DNA of 64,000 bases from Escherichia coli (lineage in GTDB: Bacteria > Pseudomonadota > Gammaproteobacteria > Enterobacterales > Enterobacteriaceae), in the NCBI RefSeq assembly GCF_016903815.1, contig NZ_CP069973.1; one strand, written 5' to 3'. The position numbers and the translations under genes are program-made. The notes beneath the pieces were generated by a model. It was not told where the DNA came from and did not search any database. It saw nothing but the letters and a program-made list of their open reading frames with translations. How positions within the stretch are numbered: position 1 is the first letter of the stretch; the number at the start of each line of letters is the position of its first letter. Of this stretch, positions 783-30,720 are shown piece after piece.

Positions 783-2729
783 ATGAATATTTTAGGTTTT
801 TTCCAGCGACTCGGTAGGGCGTTACAGCTCCCTATCGCGGTGCTGCCGGTGGCGGCGCTGTTGCTGCGATTCGGTCAGCCAGATTTACTTAACGTTGCGT
901 TTATTGCCCAGGCGGGCGGTGCGATTTTTGATAACCTCGCATTAATCTTCGCCATCGGCGTGGCATCCAGCTGGTCGAAAGACAGCGCAGGTGCGGCGGC
1001 ACTGGCGGGTGCGGTAGGTTACTTTGTGTTAACCAAAGCGATGGTGACCATCAACCCGGAAATTAACATGGGTGTACTGGCGGGTATCATTACCGGTCTG
1101 GTCGGTGGTGCAGCCTATAACCGTTGGTCCGATATTAAACTGCCGGACTTCCTGAGCTTCTTCGGCGGCAAACGCTTTGTGCCGATCGCCACCGGCTTCT
1201 TCTGTCTGGTGCTGGCGGCCATTTTTGGTTACGTCTGGCCGCCGGTACAGCACGCTATCCATGCAGGCGGCGAGTGGATCGTTTCTGCGGGCGCGCTGGG
1301 TTCCGGTATCTTTGGTTTCATCAACCGTCTGCTGATCCCAACCGGTCTGCATCAGGTGCTGAACACCATCGCCTGGTTCCAGATTGGTGAATTCACCAAC
1401 GCGGCGGGAACGGTTTTCCACGGTGATATCAACCGCTTCTATGCCGGTGACGGCACCGCGGGGATGTTCATGTCCGGCTTCTTCCCGATTATGATGTTCG
1501 GTCTGCCAGGTGCGGCGCTGGCGATGTACTTCGCAGCACCGAAAGAGCGTCGTCCGATGGTTGGCGGGATGCTGCTTTCTGTTGCTGTTACTGCGTTCCT
1601 GACCGGTGTGACTGAGCCGCTGGAATTCCTGTTCATGTTCCTTGCGCCGCTGCTGTACCTCCTGCACGCACTGCTGACCGGTATCAGCCTGTTTGTGGCA
1701 ACGCTGCTGGGTATCCACGCGGGCTTCTCCTTCTCTGCGGGGGCTATCGACTACGCGTTGATGTATAACCTGCCGGCCGCCAGCCAGAACGTCTGGATGC
1801 TGCTGGTGATGGGTGTTGTCTTCTTCGCTATCTACTTCGTGGTGTTCAGTTTGGTTATCCGCATGTTCAACCTGAAAACGCCGGGTCGTGAAGATAAAGA
1901 AGATGAGATCGTTACTGAAGAAGCCAACAGCAACACTGAAGAAGGCCTCAATCAACTGGCGACCAACTATATTGCTGCGGTTGGCGGCACTGACAACCTG
2001 AAAGCAATTGACGCCTGTATTACTCGTCTGCGCCTGACCGTGGTTGACTCGGCTCGCGTCAACGATGCGATGTGTAAACGGCTGGGTGCTTCTGGGGTAG
2101 TGAAACTGAACAAACAGACTATTCAGGTGATTGTTGGCGCGAAAGCGGAATCCATTGGCGATGCAATGAAGAAAGTTGTTGCCCGTGGTCCGGTAGCCGC
2201 TGCGTCAGCTGAAACTGCGCCTGCAACTGCCGCGCCTGTAGCAAAACCGCAGGCTATACCAAACGCGGTGTCTGTCGCGGAGCTGGTATCGCCGATTACC
2301 GGTGATGTTGTGGCACTGGATCAGGTTCCTGACGAAGCATTCGCCAGCAAAGCGGTGGGTGACGGTGTGGCGGTGAAACCGACAGATAAAATCGTCGTAT
2401 CACCAGCCGCAGGGACAATCGTGAAAATCTTCAACACCAACCACGCGTTCTGTCTGGAAACCGAAAAAGGCGCGGAGATCGTCGTCCATATGGGTATCGA
2501 CACCGTAGCGCTGGAAGGTAAAGGCTTTAAACGTCTGGTGGAAGAGGGCGCGCAAGTAAGCGCAGGGCAACCGATTCTGGAAATGGATCTGGATTACCTG
2601 AACGCTAACGCCCGTTCGATGATTAGCCCGGTGGTTTGCAGCAATATCGACGATTTCAGCGGCTTGATCATTAAAGCTCAGGGCCATGTTGTGGCGGGTC
2701 AAACACCGCTGTATGAAATCAAAAAGTAA
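783..2729 (+). CDS. nagE: PTS N-acetylglucosamine-specific EIICBA component
   Basis: 648 aa ORF; membrane EIIC N-terminal half, EIIB Cys motif (DACITRLR) and C-terminal EIIA domain; recognised as NagE. Confidence 0.95.
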   Translation: MNILGFFQRLGRALQLPIAVLPVAALLLRFGQPDLLNVAFIAQAGGAIFDNLALIFAIGVASSWSKDSAGAAALAGAVGYFVLTKAMVTINPEINMGVLAGIITGLVGGAAYNRWSDIKLPDFLSFFGGKRFVPIATGFFCLVLAAIFGYVWPPVQHAIHAGGEWIVSAGALGSGIFGFINRLLIPTGLHQVLNTIAWFQIGEFTNAAGTVFHGDINRFYAGDGTAGMFMSGFFPIMMFGLPGAALAMYFAAPKERRPMVGGMLLSVAVTAFLTGVTEPLEFLFMFLAPLLYLLHALLTGISLFVATLLGIHAGFSFSAGAIDYALMYNLPAASQNVWMLLVMGVVFFAIYFVVFSLVIRMFNLKTPGREDKEDEIVTEEANSNTEEGLNQLATNYIAAVGGTDNLKAIDACITRLRLTVVDSARVNDAMCKRLGASGVVKLNKQTIQVIVGAKAESIGDAMKKVVARGPVAAASAETAPATAAPVAKPQAIPNAVSVAELVSPITGDVVALDQVPDEAFASKAVGDGVAVKPTDKIVVSPAAGTIVKIFNTNHAFCLETEKGAEIVVHMGIDTVALEGKGFKRLVEEGAQVSAGQPILEMDLDYLNANARSMISPVVCSNIDDFSGLIIKAQGHVVAGQTPLYEIKK

Positions 2730-2743
2730 TCTGCTTTATACCT

Positions 2744-2767
2744 GATGCGACACGGCAGCGTCGCATC
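2744..2767. repeat. REP-like palindromic hairpin immediately downstream of nagE
   Basis: gatgcgacacggcagcgtcgcatc forms an inverted repeat directly after the nagE stop codon. Confidence 0.4.
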
Positions 2768-2789
2768 CAACAATGACAAGCGGTGGAGA

Positions 2790-3520
2790 TCTTCTCTGCC
2801 GCTTTTTTTGTGCACAGAAAACCCCCAGCTAGGCTGGGGGTTCCGGAAAGCTTTCAGCTTTAAGCCAGTTATTAAAACCCCTTTTGATTTGTTAAAACAC
2901 CTTGCGGTCTGGCAACTGCAAGTGTCAAACAAGAAATCAAAAGGGGGTCCCAATGGGGAACGAAAAGAGCTTAGCGCACACCCGATGGAACTGTAAATAT
3001 CACATAGTTTTTGCGCCAAAATACCGAAGACAGGTGTTCTACAGAGAGAAGCGTAGAGCAATAGGCAGTATTTTGAGAAAGCTGTGTGAGTGGAAAAGTG
3101 TACGGATTCTGGAAGCTGAATGCTGTGCAGATCATATCCATATGCTTGTGGAGATCCCGCCCAAAATGAGCGTATCCGGCTTTATGGGATATCTGAAAGG
3201 GAAAAGCAGTCTGATGCTTTACGAGCAGTTTGGTGATTTGAAATTCAAATACAGGAACAGGGAGTTCTGGTGCAGAGGGTACTACGTCGATACGGTGGGT
3301 AAGAACACGGCGAAGATACAGGATTACATAAAGCACCAGCTTGAAGAGGATAAAATGGGAGAGCAGTTATCGATTCCCTATCCGGGCAGCCCGTTTACGG
3401 GCCGTAAGTAACGAAGTTGGATGCAAATGTCAGATCGTGTGCGCCTGTTAGGGCGCGGCTGGTAAGAGAGCCTTATAGGCGCATTTGAAAAACCTCCGGC
3501 TATGCCGGAGGATATTTATT
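2790..3520 (+). mobile_element. IS200 (IS200/IS605 family) insertion sequence, boundaries approximate
   Basis: Perfect hairpin cccccagctagctggggg (about 2822-2843), a second long stem-loop ccccttttgatt...aatcaaaagggggt spanning the tnpA ribosome-binding site, a 152 aa Y1 transposase and a right-end hairpin (cctccggctatgccggagg); the nagE-glnS spacer is about 0.7 kb longer than I recall for K-12. Confidence 0.85.
2953..3411 (+). CDS. tnpA: IS200 transposase TnpA (HUH/Y1 family)
   Basis: Translation MGNEKSLAHTRWNCKYHIVFAPKYRRQVFY...HIHMLVEIPP... with the HxH (HUH) motif; near-identical to Salmonella IS200 TnpA as I recall it. The ORF-track entry starts upstream at 2902; the ATG at 2953 is the homologous start. 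Confidence 0.9.
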   Translation: MGNEKSLAHTRWNCKYHIVFAPKYRRQVFYREKRRAIGSILRKLCEWKSVRILEAECCADHIHMLVEIPPKMSVSGFMGYLKGKSSLMLYEQFGDLKFKYRNREFWCRGYYVDTVGKNTAKIQDYIKHQLEEDKMGEQLSIPYPGSPFTGRK

Positions 3521-3643
3521 TTTCATCAATCATCCCCATAATCTCAGTGAGATTTTCGATTTTCACTAACTAACAGTTGTCAGCCTGTCCCGCTTATAAG
3601 ATCATACGCCGTTATACGTTGTTTACGCTTTGAGGAATCCACG

Positions 3644-5308
3644 ATGAGTGAGGCAGAAGCCCGCCCGACTAACTTTATTCGTCAGATCATCGATGAAGAT
3701 CTGGCCAGTGGTAAGCACACCACAGTACACACCCGTTTCCCGCCGGAGCCGAATGGCTATCTGCATATTGGCCATGCGAAATCTATCTGCCTGAACTTCG
3801 GGATCGCCCAGGACTATAAAGGCCAGTGCAACCTGCGTTTCGACGACACTAACCCGGTAAAAGAAGATATCGAGTATGTTGAGTCGATCAAAAACGACGT
3901 AGAGTGGTTAGGTTTTCACTGGTCTGGTAACGTCCGTTACTCCTCCGATTATTTTGATCAGCTCCACGCCTATGCGATCGAACTGATCAATAAAGGCCTG
4001 GCGTACGTTGATGAACTGACACCGGAACAGATCCGCGAATACCGCGGCACCCTGACGCAGCCGGGTAAAAACAGCCCGTACCGCGACCGCAGCGTTGAAG
4101 AGAACCTGGCGCTGTTCGAAAAAATGCGTACCGGTGGTTTTGAAGAAGGTAAAGCCTGCCTGCGTGCGAAAATCGACATGGCGTCGCCATTTATCGTAAT
4201 GCGCGATCCGGTGCTGTACCGCATTAAATTTGCTGAACACCACCAGACTGGCAACAAGTGGTGCATCTACCCGATGTACGACTTCACCCATTGCATCAGC
4301 GATGCGCTGGAAGGTATTACGCACTCTCTGTGTACGCTTGAGTTCCAGGACAACCGTCGCCTGTACGACTGGGTGCTGGACAACATCACCATTCCTGTTC
4401 ACCCGCGCCAGTACGAATTCTCGCGCCTGAATCTGGAATACACTGTGATGTCCAAGCGTAAGCTGAACCTGCTGGTGACCGACAAGCACGTTGAAGGCTG
4501 GGATGACCCGCGTATGCCGACCATTTCCGGTCTGCGTCGTCGTGGTTACACTGCGGCTTCTATTCGTGAGTTCTGCAAACGCATCGGTGTGACCAAGCAG
4601 GACAACACCATTGAGATGGCGTCACTGGAATCCTGCATCCGTGAAGATCTCAACGAAAATGCGCCGCGCGCAATGGCGGTTATCGATCCGGTGAAACTGG
4701 TTATCGAAAACTACCATGGCGAAGGCGAAATGGTCACCATGCCGAACCATCCGAACAAACCGGAAATGGGGAGCCGTCAGGTGCCGTTTAGCGGTGAGAT
4801 TTGGATCGATCGCGCCGATTTCCGCGAAGAAGCTAACAAGCAGTACAAACGTCTGGTGCTGGGTAAAGAAGTGCGTCTGCGTAATGCTTACGTCATTAAG
4901 GCTGAACGCGTGGAGAAAGATGCCGAAGGCAATATCACCACCATCTTCTGTACTTATGACGCCGACACCTTAAGCAAAGATCCGGCAGATGGTCGTAAAG
5001 TCAAAGGTGTTATTCACTGGGTGAGCGCGGCACATGCGCTGCCGGTTGAAATCCGCCTGTACGATCGTCTGTTCAGCGTGCCGAACCCAGGTGCTGCGGA
5101 TGATTTCCTGTCGGTGATTAACCCGGAATCGCTGGTGATCAAACAGGGCTTTGCTGAACCGTCTCTGAAAGACGCGGTTGCGGGTAAAGCATTCCAGTTT
5201 GAACGTGAAGGTTATTTCTGCCTCGACAGCCGCCATTCCACTGCCGAAAAACCGGTATTTAACCGCACCGTAGGGCTGCGTGATACCTGGGCGAAAGTAG
5301 GCGAGTAG
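3644..5308 (+). CDS. glnS: glutaminyl-tRNA synthetase
   Basis: 554 aa; class I HIGH motif (LHIGHAKS) and VMSKR (KMSKS-type) motif present in the translation. Confidence 0.95.
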
Positions 5309-25410: not shown

Positions 25411-28400
25411 ATGAGTGGAAAACCGGCGGCGCGTCAGGGCGACATGACGCAGTATGGCGGTAGCATTGTCCAGGGTTCAGCCGGGGTGCGCATCGGTGCC
25501 CCCACCGGCGTGGCCTGTTCGGTGTGCCCCGGCGGGGTGACGTCCGGCCATCCGGTCAATCCGCTGCTCGGCGCGAAGGTCCTTCCCGGAGAAACCGACC
25601 TTGCCCTGCCCGGCCCGCTGCCGTTCATCCTCTCCCGCACCTACAGCAGTTACCGGACAAAAACGCCCGCGCCGGTGGGGAGCCTCGGCCCCGGCTGGAA
25701 AATGCCTGCGGATATCCGCTTACAGCTGCGCGATAACACACTGATACTCAGTGATAACGGCGGCAGAAGCCTGTATTTTGAGCACCTGTTTCCCGGTGAG
25801 GACGGTTACAGCCGCAGCGAGTCACTCTGGCTGGTGCGCGGCGGTGTCCTGAAACTGGATGAAGGTCACCGGCTGGCCGCACTCTGGCAGGCGCTGCCGG
25901 AAGAACTCCGCTTAAGTCCGCATCGTTATCTGGCGACGAACAGTCCGCAGGGGCCGTGGTGGGTACTCGGCTGGTGTGAGCGGGTGCCGGAGGCGGATGA
26001 GGTGCTGCCTGCGCCGCTGCCGCCGTACCGGGTACTGACCGGGCTGGTGGACCGCTTCGGGCGCACACAGACGTTCCACCGTGAGGCTGGCGGCGAAATC
26101 ACCGGCGTGACGGATGGTGCCGGGCGTCACTTCCGGCTGGTACTGACCACGCAGGCGCAGCGGGCAGAAGAAGCCCGGCAGCAGGCCTCTTCCGGCGGGA
26201 CGGAACCGTCCGCTTTTCCTGATACCCTGCCGGGTTACACCGAATATGGCCGGGACAACGGCATCCGTCTGTCTGCCGTGTGGCTGACGCACGACCCGGA
26301 ATACCCGGAGAATTTACCTGCCGCGCCGCTGGTGCGCTATGGCTGGACGCCACGCGGCGAACTGGCGGCGGTGTATGACCGCAGCAATACACAGGTGCGC
26401 AGCTTTACTTACGATGATAAATACCGGGGCCGGATGGTGGCGCACCGTCACACGGGCCGGCCGGAAATCCGTTACCGTTACGACAGCGACGGGCGGGTGA
26501 CAGAACAGCTAAACCCGGCAGGCTTAAGCTACACGTATCAGTATGAGAAAGACCGCATCACCATCACCGACAGTATGGACCGCCGTGAAGTGCTGCACAC
26601 GCAGGGCGAAGGCGGGCTGAAGCGGGTGGTGAAAAAGGAACACGCGGACGGCAGCGTCACGCAGAGTCAGTTTGATGCGGTGGGCAGGCTTAAGGCACAG
26701 ACGGATGCCGCAGGCCGGACGACTGAGTACAGCCCGGATGTGGTGACGGGACTCATCACGCGCATCACCACACCGGATGGCAGGGCATCGGCATTTTACT
26801 ATAACCACCACAACCAGTTAACGTCAGCCACCGGGCCTGACGGGCTGGAAATACGCCGGGAATATGATGAATCCGGCCGTCTGATTCAGGAAACCGCACA
26901 CAACGGCGATATCACCCGCTACCGTTATGATAATCCACACAGTGACTTACCCTGCGCAACGGAAGATGCCACCGGCAGCCGGAAAACCATGACATGGAGC
27001 CGTTACGGTCAGTTGCTGACCGTCACTGACTGTTCCGGTTATGTAACCCGTTATGACCATGACCGTTTTGGTCAGGTGACGGCGGTGCACCGCGAGGAAG
27101 GGCTGAGTCAGTACCGCGCATACGACAGCCGTGGACAGTTAATTGCGGTGAAAGACACGCAGGGCCATGAAACGCGGTATGAATACAACGCCGCCGGTGA
27201 CCTGACCGCCGTCATTGCCCCGGACGGCAGCAGAAACGGGACACAGTACGATGCGTGGGGAAAGGCCATCCGTACCACACAGGGCGGTCTGACGCGCAGT
27301 ATGGAATACGATGCTGCCGGACGGGTCATCCGCCTGACCAGTGAAAACGGCAGCCACACCACCTTCCGTTACGATGTACTCGACCGGCTGATACAGGAAA
27401 CCGGCTTTGACGGCCGCACACAGCGTTATCACCACGACCTGACCGGCAAACTTATCCGCAGCGAGGATGAGGGGCTGGTCACCCACTGGCACTATGACGA
27501 AGCAGACCGCATCACACAGCGAACGGTGAATGGTGAAACCGCAGAACAGTGGCGGTACGACGAACGCGGCTGGCTGACACAAATCAGCCATCTCAGCGAA
27601 GGCCACCGGGTGACGGTGCATTACGGGTATGATGAGAAAGGCCGCCTGACCGGTGAGCGCCAGACGGTGCATCACCCGCAGACGGAAGCACTGCTCTGGC
27701 AGCATGAAACCAGACACGCTTACAACGCGCAGGGACTGGCGAACCGCTGTATACCGGACAGCCTGCCCGCCGTGGAATGGCTGACTTACGGCAGCGGCTG
27801 GCTGGCAGGCATGAAACTCGGCGACACACCGCTGGTGGATTTCACCCGCGACCGCCTGCACCGGGAAACGCTGCGCAGCTTCGGCCGTTATGAACTCACC
27901 ACCGCTTATACCTCTGCCGGGCAGTTACAGAGCCAGCACCTGAACAGCCTGCAGTATGACCGCGATTACACCTGGAACGACAACGGCGAACTCATCCGCA
28001 TCAGCAGCCCGCGCCAGACCCGGAGTTACAGCTACAGCGACACCGGCAGGCTGACCGGCGTCCACACCACGGCAGCGAACCTTGATATCCGCATCCCGTA
28101 TGCCACGGACCCGGCGGGCAACCGCCTGCCCGACCCGGAGCTGCACCCGGACAGCCCCCTCAGCGCATGGCCGGATAACCGTATCGCCCGTGACGCGCAC
28201 TATCTTTACCGGTATGACCGTCACGGCAGGCTGACGGAGAAAACCGACCTCATCCCGGAAGGGGTTATCCGCACGGATGATGAGCGGACTCACCGGTACC
28301 ATTACGACAGCCGGCACCGGCTGGTGCACTACACGCGGACACAATATGCAGAGCCGCTGGTCGAAAGTCGCTATCTTTACGACCTGCTGGGCCGCAGGGT

Positions 28401-29550
28401 GGCAAAACGGGTATGGCGGCGTGAACGGGACCTGACGGGCTGGATGTCGCTGTCATGGAAACCGGAAGTGCCCTGGTACGGCTGGGACGGCGACCGGCTG
28501 ACCACAATACAGAACGACAGAACCCGCATCCAGACGGTTTATCAGCCGGGGAGCTTCACGCCACTCATCAGAGTTGAAACTGCCACCGGTGAGCTGGCGA
28601 AAACGCAGCGCCGCAGCCTGGCGGATGCGCTTCAGCAGTCCGGCGGTGAAGACGGTGGCAGTGTGGTGTTCCCGCCGGTGCTGGTGCAGATGCTCGACCG
28701 GCTGGAAAGTGAAATCCTGGCTGACCGGGTGAGTGAGGAAAGCCGCCGCTGGCTGGCATCGTGCGGCCTGACGGTGGAGCAGATACAAAACCAGATGGAC
28801 CCGGTGTACACGCCGGCGCGAAAAATCCACCTGTACCACTGCGACCATCGCGGCCTGCCGCTGGCGCTTGTCAGCACGGAAGGGGCAACAGAATGGTGCG
28901 CAGAATACGATGAATGGGGCAACCTGCTGAATGAAGAGAACCCGCATCAGCTGCAGCAGCTCATCCGCCTGCCGGGTCAGCAGTATGATGAGGAGTCCGG
29001 CCTGTATTACAACCGCCACCGCTATTATGACCCGCTGAAGGGGCGGTATATCACTCAGGATCCGATTGGACTGAAGGGGGGATGGAATTTTTATCAGTAT
29101 CCGTTAAATCCGATCTCAGAGATAGACCCACAAGGGTTAAATCCGTTAATTCTTAGTGTTGTAGCACTGATGAGTTGCGGTTTGTTTTCATCAGGTGGTG
29201 TTATCCAAAGTGGGCAACAACGCAGAGATCAATATGGCCGTAAAGTTAATCCAGAAGCCGACAAATTAACAGATGAACATAAGTCAGGTGTAAATCCTGG
29301 TGGTAACTGTAGTCCCCAGAACCTGAGTGACTTACAAAATGAAAAAAACAGATTATGTAACCAGTCTAGAGCTTGCGCTCCTCAGATGCTGAGAAAAGAA
29401 ATATTGAGACGGTACGAGATAAATTTGGCGTGCGCTTCGGTCAGAAAGCAGATTAATAATCAGTGCTTTGGTGGTGGAGATAAGGCCCATATGGAAGAAG
29501 AGAATAAAGCATATAAAACAGCAGCTGATTGCAGTGGCTTAATAAAATGA
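25411..29550 (+). CDS. rhsC: Rhs-family polymorphic toxin: YD-repeat shell, PxxxxDPxGL core boundary, variable C-terminal tip
   Basis: 1379 aa; GC-rich YD/RHS repeat core with an N-terminal region close to K-12 RhsC as I recall it; core ends at ...[14 protein letters not shown] (about 29139), followed by a roughly 136 aa AT-rich tip. Confidence 0.9.
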
Positions 29551-30050
29551 AAAAAATAATTTTCTCTAACGAGAGTGCAGTCTATGATGAACTTATGATT
29601 CATTTCCCATGCCAGCCATTACCTCATATTTCAAATGATATTACAGGGCTGGAGGAACTGGATATTGTATATAATTTTTTCCAAAAGAAACAATGGAATG
29701 AAATAGCCAACAATTTTAAAATAAAGGATGACTCTTATGCTTTAGAGTTAGGAATTACATTCCTCCCTGAGAAAGTATTCTGCTATTACATCCCTCTGTA
29801 TATTTATGCCTCGTTGTTTAATAAGAATGATTTTTGGGTTTTTGAATCCGATTTTATTCAACAATATTTATGTCCTGAGTATCGGGATCACGATGATTTT
29901 TTGAATTTTGTTTTTAATTTTTCAGATATACAACTATCTATTATTGCACAGTTTATGTCTTATGAATCAGACGCTGGATTCTTTTATGCAAGTAAAGCTT
30001 GTATGGATTTTTGGGAAGATTATTCACCTCTATTACATAAGAAAATTTAA
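29547..30050 (+). CDS. putative cognate Rhs immunity protein
   Basis: 167 aa ORF ([20 protein letters not shown]...) whose ATG overlaps the rhsC stop (ATGA); AT-rich like the toxin tip; the position and coupling are typical of rhsI genes. An in-frame ATG at 29529 is an alternative start. Confidence 0.6.
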
Positions 30051-30102
30051 TCGTAAAAGGTATAAATGGTTTAATAAAAAACTTGTCTACTCGTTGGAGT
30101 AG

Positions 30103-30720
30103 ATGAAAAATAAGATGACGTTGGCATATAGATCACTGCGAATAATCCACCTCTACCACTGCGACTATCGCGGCCTGCCGCTGACGCTTATCAGCCCTGA
30201 CGGGGCAACAGAATGGTGCGCAGAATATGATGAATGGGGCAACCTGCTGACTGAAGAGAACCCGCAGCACCTGCAGCAGCTTATCCGTCTGCCGGGGCAG
30301 CAGTATGATGAGGAGTCCGGCCTGTATTACAACCGCCACCGCTATTATGACCCGCTGCAGGGGCGGTGTATCACTCAGGATCCGATTGGGCTGGAAGGCG
30401 GGTGGAATCAGTATGTATATGCTTCCATACATCCAACCTATTCTATTGATCCGCTGGGCTTAATTGATAAACCTGCTCCAGTATTCAATCGAGAACTAAA
30501 TTCAGATGCGTATTATCTTGCCGTAAATAATTGCTATTCATATGCTCTAAATAGGTATGGAAATCCTGGGAGTAGGATTTTTGGCGGCGGAGGATTACAA
30601 CCTGGAGAATTATCTGGAAAAGAGTTTTCTAAACTCACTTGTAGTAGTATTTTTGAAGCGTCAAAAAATGATGGTGCCAAGGACAGGGAAAGATCATCAG
30701 AAGTACACTTTTTGTACTAA
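30103..30720 (+). other. orphan Rhs C-terminal tip fragment (core-end homology plus an alternative toxin domain); lacks the Rhs core and a credible start of its own
   Basis: Translation ...[35 protein letters not shown]...[17 protein letters not shown]...IDPLGL then an unrelated 85 aa tail; nucleotides 30141-30408 are about 92% identical to rhsC 28821-29088 by eye. Confidence 0.8.

Follow-up and report, generated by a model that had tools for sequence, protein, structure and literature searches.

An intact IS200C element within the T-run of the nagE terminator of Escherichia coli, and the hairpin and T-tract target of IS200-type elements

The window analysed here, i.e. the whole stretch of 64,000 nucleotides, carries the genes nagE and glnS near its beginning, and the spacer between them is unusually long. 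It measures 914 bp, as opposed to 202 bp in K-12 MG1655, where nagE ends at coordinate 705890 and glnS starts at 706093. The additional sequence is an intact IS200C element, a member of the IS200/IS605 family with tnpA only, which lies in the same orientation as nagE and is absent from this spacer in K-12. The features of the region are collected in Table 1.

Table 1. Features of the nagE-glnS region, with positions counted from the first nucleotide of the window
Feature	Position	Strand	Description	Basis
nagE	783..2729	+	648 aa, stop at 2729; upstream neighbour, IS200C in same orientation	ORF list and annotation of identical RefSeq genomes
REP-like palindrome GATGCGAC-N8-GTCGCATC	2744..2767		host sequence; not the insertion point	inverted repeats, K-12 alignment
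nagE intrinsic terminator	2778..2809	+	stem-loop 2778-2804, T-run 2803-2809; insertion target	terminator scan
IS200C	2810..3520	+	711-712 bp; alternatives 2809-3520 or 2810-3521	empty-site comparisons with K-12
Left-end hairpin AACCCCCAGC-TAG-GCTGGGGGTT	2820..2842		perfect 10-bp stem	inverted-repeat search; Rfam alignment positions 1-23
Predicted art200 antisense sRNA	2872..2961	-	about 90 nt	coordinates carried over from Salmonella/E. coli 5' ends (PMC4513863)
tnpA 5'UTR stem-loop	2878..2946	+	16-nt arms 2878-2893 / 2931-2946; GGGG(G) Shine-Dalgarno run paired; IS200 nts 69-138	
tnpA	2953..3411	+	152-aa Y1 (HUH) transposase	Pfam PF01797, HIH motif
Inner right-end imperfect palindrome	3440..3483		13-nt arms, 85% complementary	inverted-repeat search
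Right-end hairpin CCTCCGGC-TAT-GCCGGAGG, then ATATTTATT	3493..3511		terminator-like on both strands	terminator scan and inverted repeats
glnS promoter-like site TTGTCA-17-GATCAT	3577..3605	+	Dam GATC in the -10 hexamer	promoter scan
glnS	3644..5308	+	554 aa, ATG at 3644; essential gene	ORF list and RefSeq annotation

The transposase matches the Pfam family Y1_Tnp (PF01797) at 3.8e-38 over profile positions 2-121 of 121, with the HIH motif at residues 61-63 and the conserved tyrosines present. A family match was examined and obtained for a single ORF of the element, tnpA, the overlapping ORFs of the list being mechanical; with tnpA only and a length of about 0.7 kb, the organisation is that of the IS200 group, which has neither tnpB nor iscB. 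The two ends, GTGCAC... on the left and ...ATATTTATT on the right, are, as read from the sequence, not inverted repeats of each other, and both are accompanied by subterminal hairpins (2820-2842 on the left, 3440-3483 and 3493-3511 on the right). This copy differs from ten other IS200C copies at 0-5 nt, and exactly the same TnpA protein occurs in 21,686 blocks of a public collection. In RefSeq genomes with 100% identity to positions 2600-3800, the gene carries the label 'IS200/IS605-like element IS200C family transposase'. Since both the element and its insertion are found in public annotation, IS200C and even the nagE-glnS insertion are already known. A search for other IS200 copies within the 64-kb window found none, so that this copy is single there.

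The original prediction, made from the sequence of the window, had described a complete IS200 with a terminator hairpin, a stem-loop sequestering the ribosome-binding site, a TnpA of 152 aa and a right-end hairpin, and every one of these parts was located. It had further proposed a comparison with K-12, and the aligned K-12 spacer does lack the element, while tnpA is flanked by IS200 ends in the window. The range that it gave, 2730-3643, contains the element but corresponds to the whole spacer; the element itself extends from 2809/2810 to 3520/3521.

The boundaries were determined by direct reading and by anchored comparison with K-12. The intrinsic terminator of nagE begins, according to the sequence scan, 49 nt past the nagE stop codon and consists of 12 pairs (6 of them GC), a 3-nt loop and a T-tail. 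Its stem is identical in K-12, where it is followed by T9, the empty site reading ...CTCTGCCGC-T9-CATCAATC... The filled site of the window reads ...CTCTGCCGC-T7, then the element from GTGCACAGAAAACCCCC... to ...GGAGGATATTTATT, then TTTCATCAATC... The insertion point of IS200C thus falls within the T-run of this terminator. Comparison of filled and empty states at five sites (nagE and those downstream of guaA, kdsA, galU and fabF) gave the same ends throughout and, apart from a one-T difference in homopolymer runs, no target-site duplication at any of the five pairs.

The length that fits is 712 bp at three of these sites and 711 bp at the other two, an ambiguity of one T, since the last base of the element is itself a T and the surrounding sequence is a T-run. 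If a length of 711 bp is assumed, the T-run adds up to 10, as opposed to T9 in the empty sites, and the ends are for this reason uncertain by 1-2 nt. The nearest empty sites, retrieved with a 180-nt query for the reconstructed empty site and present in E. coli 042 and many others, are identical to the reconstruction except for one T, i.e. they are 1 nt shorter than the version with T10. In a Mailhella subfamily, an element-specific G stands 11 nt before the hairpin, which together with the numbering of Ellis et al., who place the left-end hairpin at nts 12-34, suggests that position 2809 is the first base of IS200C.

The original prediction had placed the IS200 immediately after the REP-like palindrome, and a different reading of the site follows from this, namely that the element was drawn to this palindrome and inserted beside it. 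The palindrome does exist, and its 5' arm, the only arm with a resemblance to the REP consensus, is similar to a Z-type REP arm. It ends at 2767, however, 42 nt before the start of the element at 2809/2810, and the complete stem-loop of the nagE terminator lies in between. The same palindrome, with a different loop, is found in K-12, the MG1655 record has no REP or repeat feature annotated at the homologous position, and a search of the 64-kb window for the REP-arm pattern with up to 2 mismatches gave 2 matches, a number reached by 13 of 100 shuffles and thus not above chance. REPs are similar to the end hairpins of IS200/IS605 elements and serve certain other insertion sequences as targets (PMC3333891), but the junction at nagE lies in the T-run of a terminator, as it does at almost every other site, without any need for a REP. 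The 42-nt gap, the occurrence of the palindrome in K-12, the lack of an annotated REP and the lack of significant relatives in the window mean that the REP-like hairpin was the wrong target, and attraction by it is very improbable.

The same insertion was found in 93 of 5,426 complete E. coli genomes, counting places that cover at least 80% of the query 2600-3800, and is thus lacking in most of them. All 30 carrier records listed agree with the 1,201-nt query at 100% identity, and each of them has 17-30 places matching the query, versus a median of 2 per genome overall; the carrier NZ_CP023820.1, for example, has 22. One carrier, WCHEC96200, belongs to ST405 and phylogroup D according to its description (PMC5762679). 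The parsimonious explanation is one fairly recent acquisition in a single clone. The insertion is accordingly a clonal marker that could serve in typing; of the 93 complete genomes which carry it, at least one belongs to ST405.

Precise excision is established for IS608 and ISDra2, and the empty sites are without a scar, as they would be if IS200C were ancestral at nagE-glnS and had been lost by precise excision from K-12 and the majority of other E. coli. Such a history would, however, imply that practically all other lineages had lost the element, whereas carriers number only 93 of the 5,426 genomes, the 30 records listed have 100% identical flanks, and the nearest empty sites share the phylogroup D background of the carriers (E. 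coli 042). In addition, IS200 transposition is of 'notoriously low frequency' (PMC4513863). We therefore consider an ancestral insertion followed by excision to be extremely improbable and retain the recent acquisition.

Several RNA features of IS200 could be placed on the element. The left-end hairpin corresponds to nts 12-34 of IS200, which have been experimentally characterised as a bidirectional rho-independent terminator (PMC4513863). The fold predicted for the tnpA 5'UTR has an energy of -40 kcal/mol (z = -4.8), a stability that none of 200 shuffles equalled, and its GGGGG run is paired. The region 2820-2943 matches Rfam family RF01405 (STnc490) over its full length on the tnpA-sense strand, with 146 bits as opposed to a gathering score of 56, and STnc490 is the sole Rfam family above threshold across the 64 kb. 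A weaker similarity of the right-end hairpin to Ysr202 (29.7 bits, gathering score 315) was dismissed as a mere hairpin similarity, and a weak match to snoTBR5 was dismissed as hairpin or chance.

As had been pointed out in the original prediction, the left-end region is the art200 locus of Salmonella IS200, in agreement with PMC4513863. This RNA, 90 nt in length, has its 5' ends at IS200 nt 153/154 in Salmonella and E. coli (PMC4513863), which maps to 2961/2962 on the minus strand of the window, and the art200 predicted from these coordinates gives a fold with z = -4.7. The strand of the Rfam match does not agree with the published description, as the STnc490 match lies on the tnpA sense strand and PMC4513863 describes STnc490/art200 as antisense. 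The inner right-end palindrome is kept in the right ends of IS1541 in Yersinia pestis, where these are seen in the flanks of two copies (L078 and L125). A built-in terminator had been predicted about 0.15 kb upstream of glnS; a terminator-like structure, the right-end hairpin at 3493-3511, is indeed situated there, but the characterised terminator of IS200 is the left-end hairpin, which lies about 0.8 kb upstream of glnS.

The right end of the element is located 123 nt upstream of the glnS start codon and 57 nt before the glnS promoter. In the stretch from 3568 to the ATG, which is identical to K-12 up to 3643, the only promoter-like site found is TTGTCA-17-GATCAT at 3577-3605. The GATC within it agrees with the Dam sensitivity of the glnS promoter described by Plumbridge & Soll 1987 (cited in PMC11741368). 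This site bears out the original prediction that glnS has to rely on a promoter in what is left of the spacer. Since neither the promoter nor the sequence between it and the ATG differs from K-12, glnS should keep its own native promoter, and an effect of IS200C on glnS is not expected. A hybrid or outward promoter at the right end of IS200C was considered and rejected, as the scan shows the native glnS promoter only. On the other side, nagE would keep its terminator with the stem-loop and 6-7 T residues, and this filled state is still called terminator-like by the scan. IS200C would in turn be shielded from read-through by the nagE terminator and by its own left-end hairpin. A mobile element has thus come to lie close to an essential gene, yet the promoter is untouched and there should be little consequence at the locus.

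This unchanged state of the glnS promoter and 5'UTR, together with the retained nagE terminator, also bears on the suggestion that the element has been co-opted, either by altering the expression of glnS or nagE (as an insulator or through its right end) or mainly as an extra source of the trans-acting 5'tnpA and art200 sRNAs. An sRNA derived from the IS200 5'UTR does regulate virulence genes in Salmonella (PMC5435999; 10.1101/2024.06.26.600842), the carrier genomes listed are rich in matching places, and the right-end hairpin looks like a terminator on either strand. Nothing, however, sets the copy at nagE apart from other IS200C copies, and co-option appears quite unlikely. Taken together, it is highly probable that IS200C transposed once into the T-tract of the nagE terminator, in an ancestor of a phylogroup D clone to which ST405 belongs, without duplication and with its neighbours minimally affected.

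The same arrangement is found at other copies. An exact lookup of the TnpA protein led to ten places in other E. coli genomes, representing nine distinct sites, and at all nine of these the left junction reads hairpin, T-rich tail, TT and then GTGCAC. At nine of the ten, the first called gene upstream points the same way as the element and stops about 40-65 bp short of the element's left end. Reportedly, Odaert and co-workers found IS1541 just downstream of monocistronic genes or of the last genes of operons.

For a wider survey, species-representative genomes were scanned with an exact 24-nt motif of the left end, which gave at least 120 stretches. The matches listed come from Yersinia pestis (IS1541), Vibrio, Brenneria, Edwardsiella, Budvicia and Pluralibacter and, among metagenome-assembled genomes (MAGs), from Mailhella/Desulfovibrio, Oxalobacter, Bacillota, Peptococcaceae, Saccharibacteria and Elusimicrobiaceae. 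From the matches listed, 122 distinct junctions with enough upstream sequence were analysed, 58 of which stem from one Y. pestis genome. A GC-rich hairpin is present close upstream of 108 of the 122 junctions, versus 5 and 13 at control positions 200 nt and 300 nt upstream and 9 in the reverse complement of the flank. The last 8 nt contain 6.0 T residues on average (controls, in the same order: 2.04, 2.14 and 2.17), and the mean folding energy of the last 45 nt is -18.6 kcal/mol (controls: -8.6, -8.5 and -7.0 kcal/mol). By the criteria used, 14 of the 122 junctions are without a hairpin.

The register of the junction is narrow. In 107 of the 108 junctions with a hairpin, its end is at most 10 nt away from the element, mostly 3-7 nt, and the flank ends in T at 120 of the 122 junctions, if in 13 junctions of the Mailhella type ('TTG') the G is read as the first base of the element. 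Only 2 of 131 copies have a base other than T at -12. Hairpins that point the other way are found at the control level only. In Y. pestis, tandem copies of IS1541 occur in which the left end of one copy abuts the right end of another exactly (L078, L125) or which are spaced by 710 nt (L079, L081). This abutment indicates that a right end, i.e. the hairpin followed by ATATTTATT, can itself serve as a target. The placement behind a hairpin and T-tract, in a single orientation, is therefore the normal target of IS200-type elements.

A preprint of 2025-26 (10.1101/2025.07.22.666184) has described an over-representation of terminator-like sequences directly upstream of insertion sequences, strongest for IS200/IS605, and interprets this enrichment as limiting transposase expression. 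It does not read the enrichment as target recognition, and a literature search for an outright statement that IS200 targets terminators led to nothing beyond it; older papers (Odaert et al. 1998, He et al. 2015) were outside the scope of this search. A regular target of hairpin and T-tract across many taxa had thus been seen only statistically and only recently, and the assessment of the nagE-glnS locus is unchanged by it.

Read in the way of the preprint, the enrichment could be due to selection only, with broad insertion and survival in harmless, transcriptionally shielded sites, and intergenic sites are indeed the least harmful ones. Selection would not, however, fix a register or a strand, and on its own it cannot explain the clustering of the distances between stem and junction, the T that almost invariably precedes the element, the excess of hairpins in one orientation only, or the use of a right end as target by tandem copies. 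That selection without targeting accounts for the pattern is accordingly unlikely, although selection for harmless sites after insertion may add to it.

As regards the strand, IS200C is co-oriented with nagE, kdsA, galU and fabF, all on the plus strand of K-12 at 0.7-1.3 Mb, and with guaA on the minus strand at 2.63 Mb. Replication of E. coli starts from oriC, situated at about 3.9 Mb, and its terminus is close to 1.6 Mb. At all five sites with K-12 coordinates the top strand of the element is on the lagging-strand template, an agreement which is confounded by the co-orientation of genes and replication; at the nagE site, the top strand is the K-12 plus strand and hence the lagging-strand template there. 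For transposition through single-stranded 'peel and paste' intermediates, the agreement would be indirect evidence at most.

A mechanism that would account for the targeting can be outlined as follows. Integration would take place on single-stranded DNA, as for IS608 and ISDra2, and the terminator hairpin with its T-tail might be recognised through its likeness to the element's own right end, again a hairpin followed by ATATTTATT. The A-rich stretches AGAA, 5' of the left-end hairpin, and GAAAAA, 5' of the right-end hairpin, could play a 'guide' role by pairing with the T-rich cleavage sites. Integration would then occur a few nt past a GC-rich hairpin, at the end of the T-rich tail and in one orientation.

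Extending this outline, we tentatively suggest, as a possibility rather than a probability, that IS200-type elements (IS200, IS200C, IS1541 and related elements in Vibrio, Desulfovibrionaceae, Bacillota and further genomes and MAGs) integrate under the guidance of structure, recognising intrinsic terminators on single-stranded DNA by mimicry of their right end, in a fixed register and on a fixed strand. If so, they would be natural 'terminator-seeking' transposons, whose target is a shape and a T-tract, unlike the tetranucleotide of IS608. Terminator targeting in many phyla would also explain why IS200-type elements are rarely harmful and always intergenic.

Compared with known systems, the element is one more copy of IS200C, the ISfinder name used by NCBI PGAP, with an identical TnpA, DNA that is 0-5 nt apart and no substantive difference. 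The IS200 of Salmonella (Ellis et al. 2015, 2017) can be aligned with it feature by feature, nts 12-34 corresponding to 2820-2842 and nts 69-138 to 2877/8-2946. That element is 707 bp in length and produces art200/STnc490 and a 5'tnpA sRNA, whereas the element in the window belongs to the IS200C subgroup, is 711-712 bp long, and its sRNAs are predicted only.

IS1541 (IS200G) from Yersinia pestis shows 87.6% DNA identity to IS200C over the full length and 94% identity in TnpA. The 24-nt motif of the left end used in the scan, i.e. the hairpin and one base, is identical in both, while the 10-nt leader differs between them (GTGCCCAGAA versus GTGCACAGAA). IS1541 likewise lies behind a hairpin and T-tract (58 junctions), but its copy number in Y. 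pestis is much higher and tandem copies occur.

Finally, IS608 and ISDra2 share with IS200C the Y1 HUH transposase, the subterminal hairpins, the lack of a target duplication and a left end directly 3' of the target. Both show a strand bias, and that of IS200C is likewise consistent with the lagging-strand template. In IS608 (TTAC) and ISDra2 (TTGAT), a tetra- or pentanucleotide is recognised by base-pairing to a guide 5' of the hairpin and no hairpin is needed in the target (PMC3201880). The sites of IS200, in contrast, have in common only a terminal T or TT and the GC-rich hairpin that precedes it.

Nine mismatches relative to K-12 are packed into 24 nt a short way 5' of the glnS -35 hexamer (CTCAGTGAGATTTTCGATTTTCAC in the window versus CCTTGTTAGATTATCAATTTTAAA in K-12), so that the A-rich stretch which adjoins this hexamer in K-12 is replaced, while the sequence on either side is almost the same. 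The variant is also present in genomes without the insertion, e.g. E. coli 042, and is therefore older than the insertion of IS200C.

Two other E. coli copies of IS200C likewise lie within a terminator T-run. One (L013) is found in the kdsA-ldrA spacer, adjoining Ldr toxin genes, the other (L006) in the galU-hns spacer directly downstream of the convergent hns. The right end of the L013 copy is the variant ATATTTTTT in place of ATATTTATT.

In Yersinia pestis NCTC5923, copies of the relative IS1541 occur in tandem, the right end of one abutting the left end of the next (...GGAGGATATTTATT|GTGCCCAGAA) with a hairpin-to-hairpin interval of 710 nt. As a left end directly follows the right end of another copy, the right end acts like a target site.

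Locations of the features discussed
Feature	Location	Strand
Variant patch upstream of glnS	3544-3567	
Rfam RF01405 match	2820-2943	+
art200 antisense counterpart, predicted	2872-2961	-
Rhs region	25411-30720	
Orphan RHS-core fragment	30103-30720	
Tandem IS1541, L078		
Tandem IS1541, L125		
Tandem IS1541, L079	2660/3370	
Tandem IS1541, L081	12604/13314	

Among the matches listed, the exact 24-nt IS200 left-end motif was also found in MAGs of distant phyla (L014-L075), assigned to Bacillota, Peptococcaceae, Mailhella/Desulfovibrio, Oxalobacter, Saccharibacteria and Elusimicrobiaceae. These listed matches are mostly located at contig ends, and TnpA of the copies with sufficient sequence shares 74-94% identity with that of E. 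coli. The motif in these MAGs reflects either broad horizontal spread or contamination from binning.

Elsewhere in the window, a 1,379-aa Rhs protein contains 10 RHS repeats, DUF6531, an RHS core and a C-terminal Ntox16 toxin domain. The small ORF following its gene, possibly an immunity gene, shows a sub-threshold DUF6714 match; the RHS-core fragment comes after both.

The RF01405 ('STnc490') match spans the left-end hairpin and the 5'UTR stem-loop on the tnpA-sense strand. However, art200/STnc490 has been described as an antisense RNA of 90 nt starting at nt 153/154 (Ellis et al. 2015, PMC4513863), and its predicted counterpart lies on the opposite strand. What RF01405 models appears to be the left end on the sense strand, not art200.
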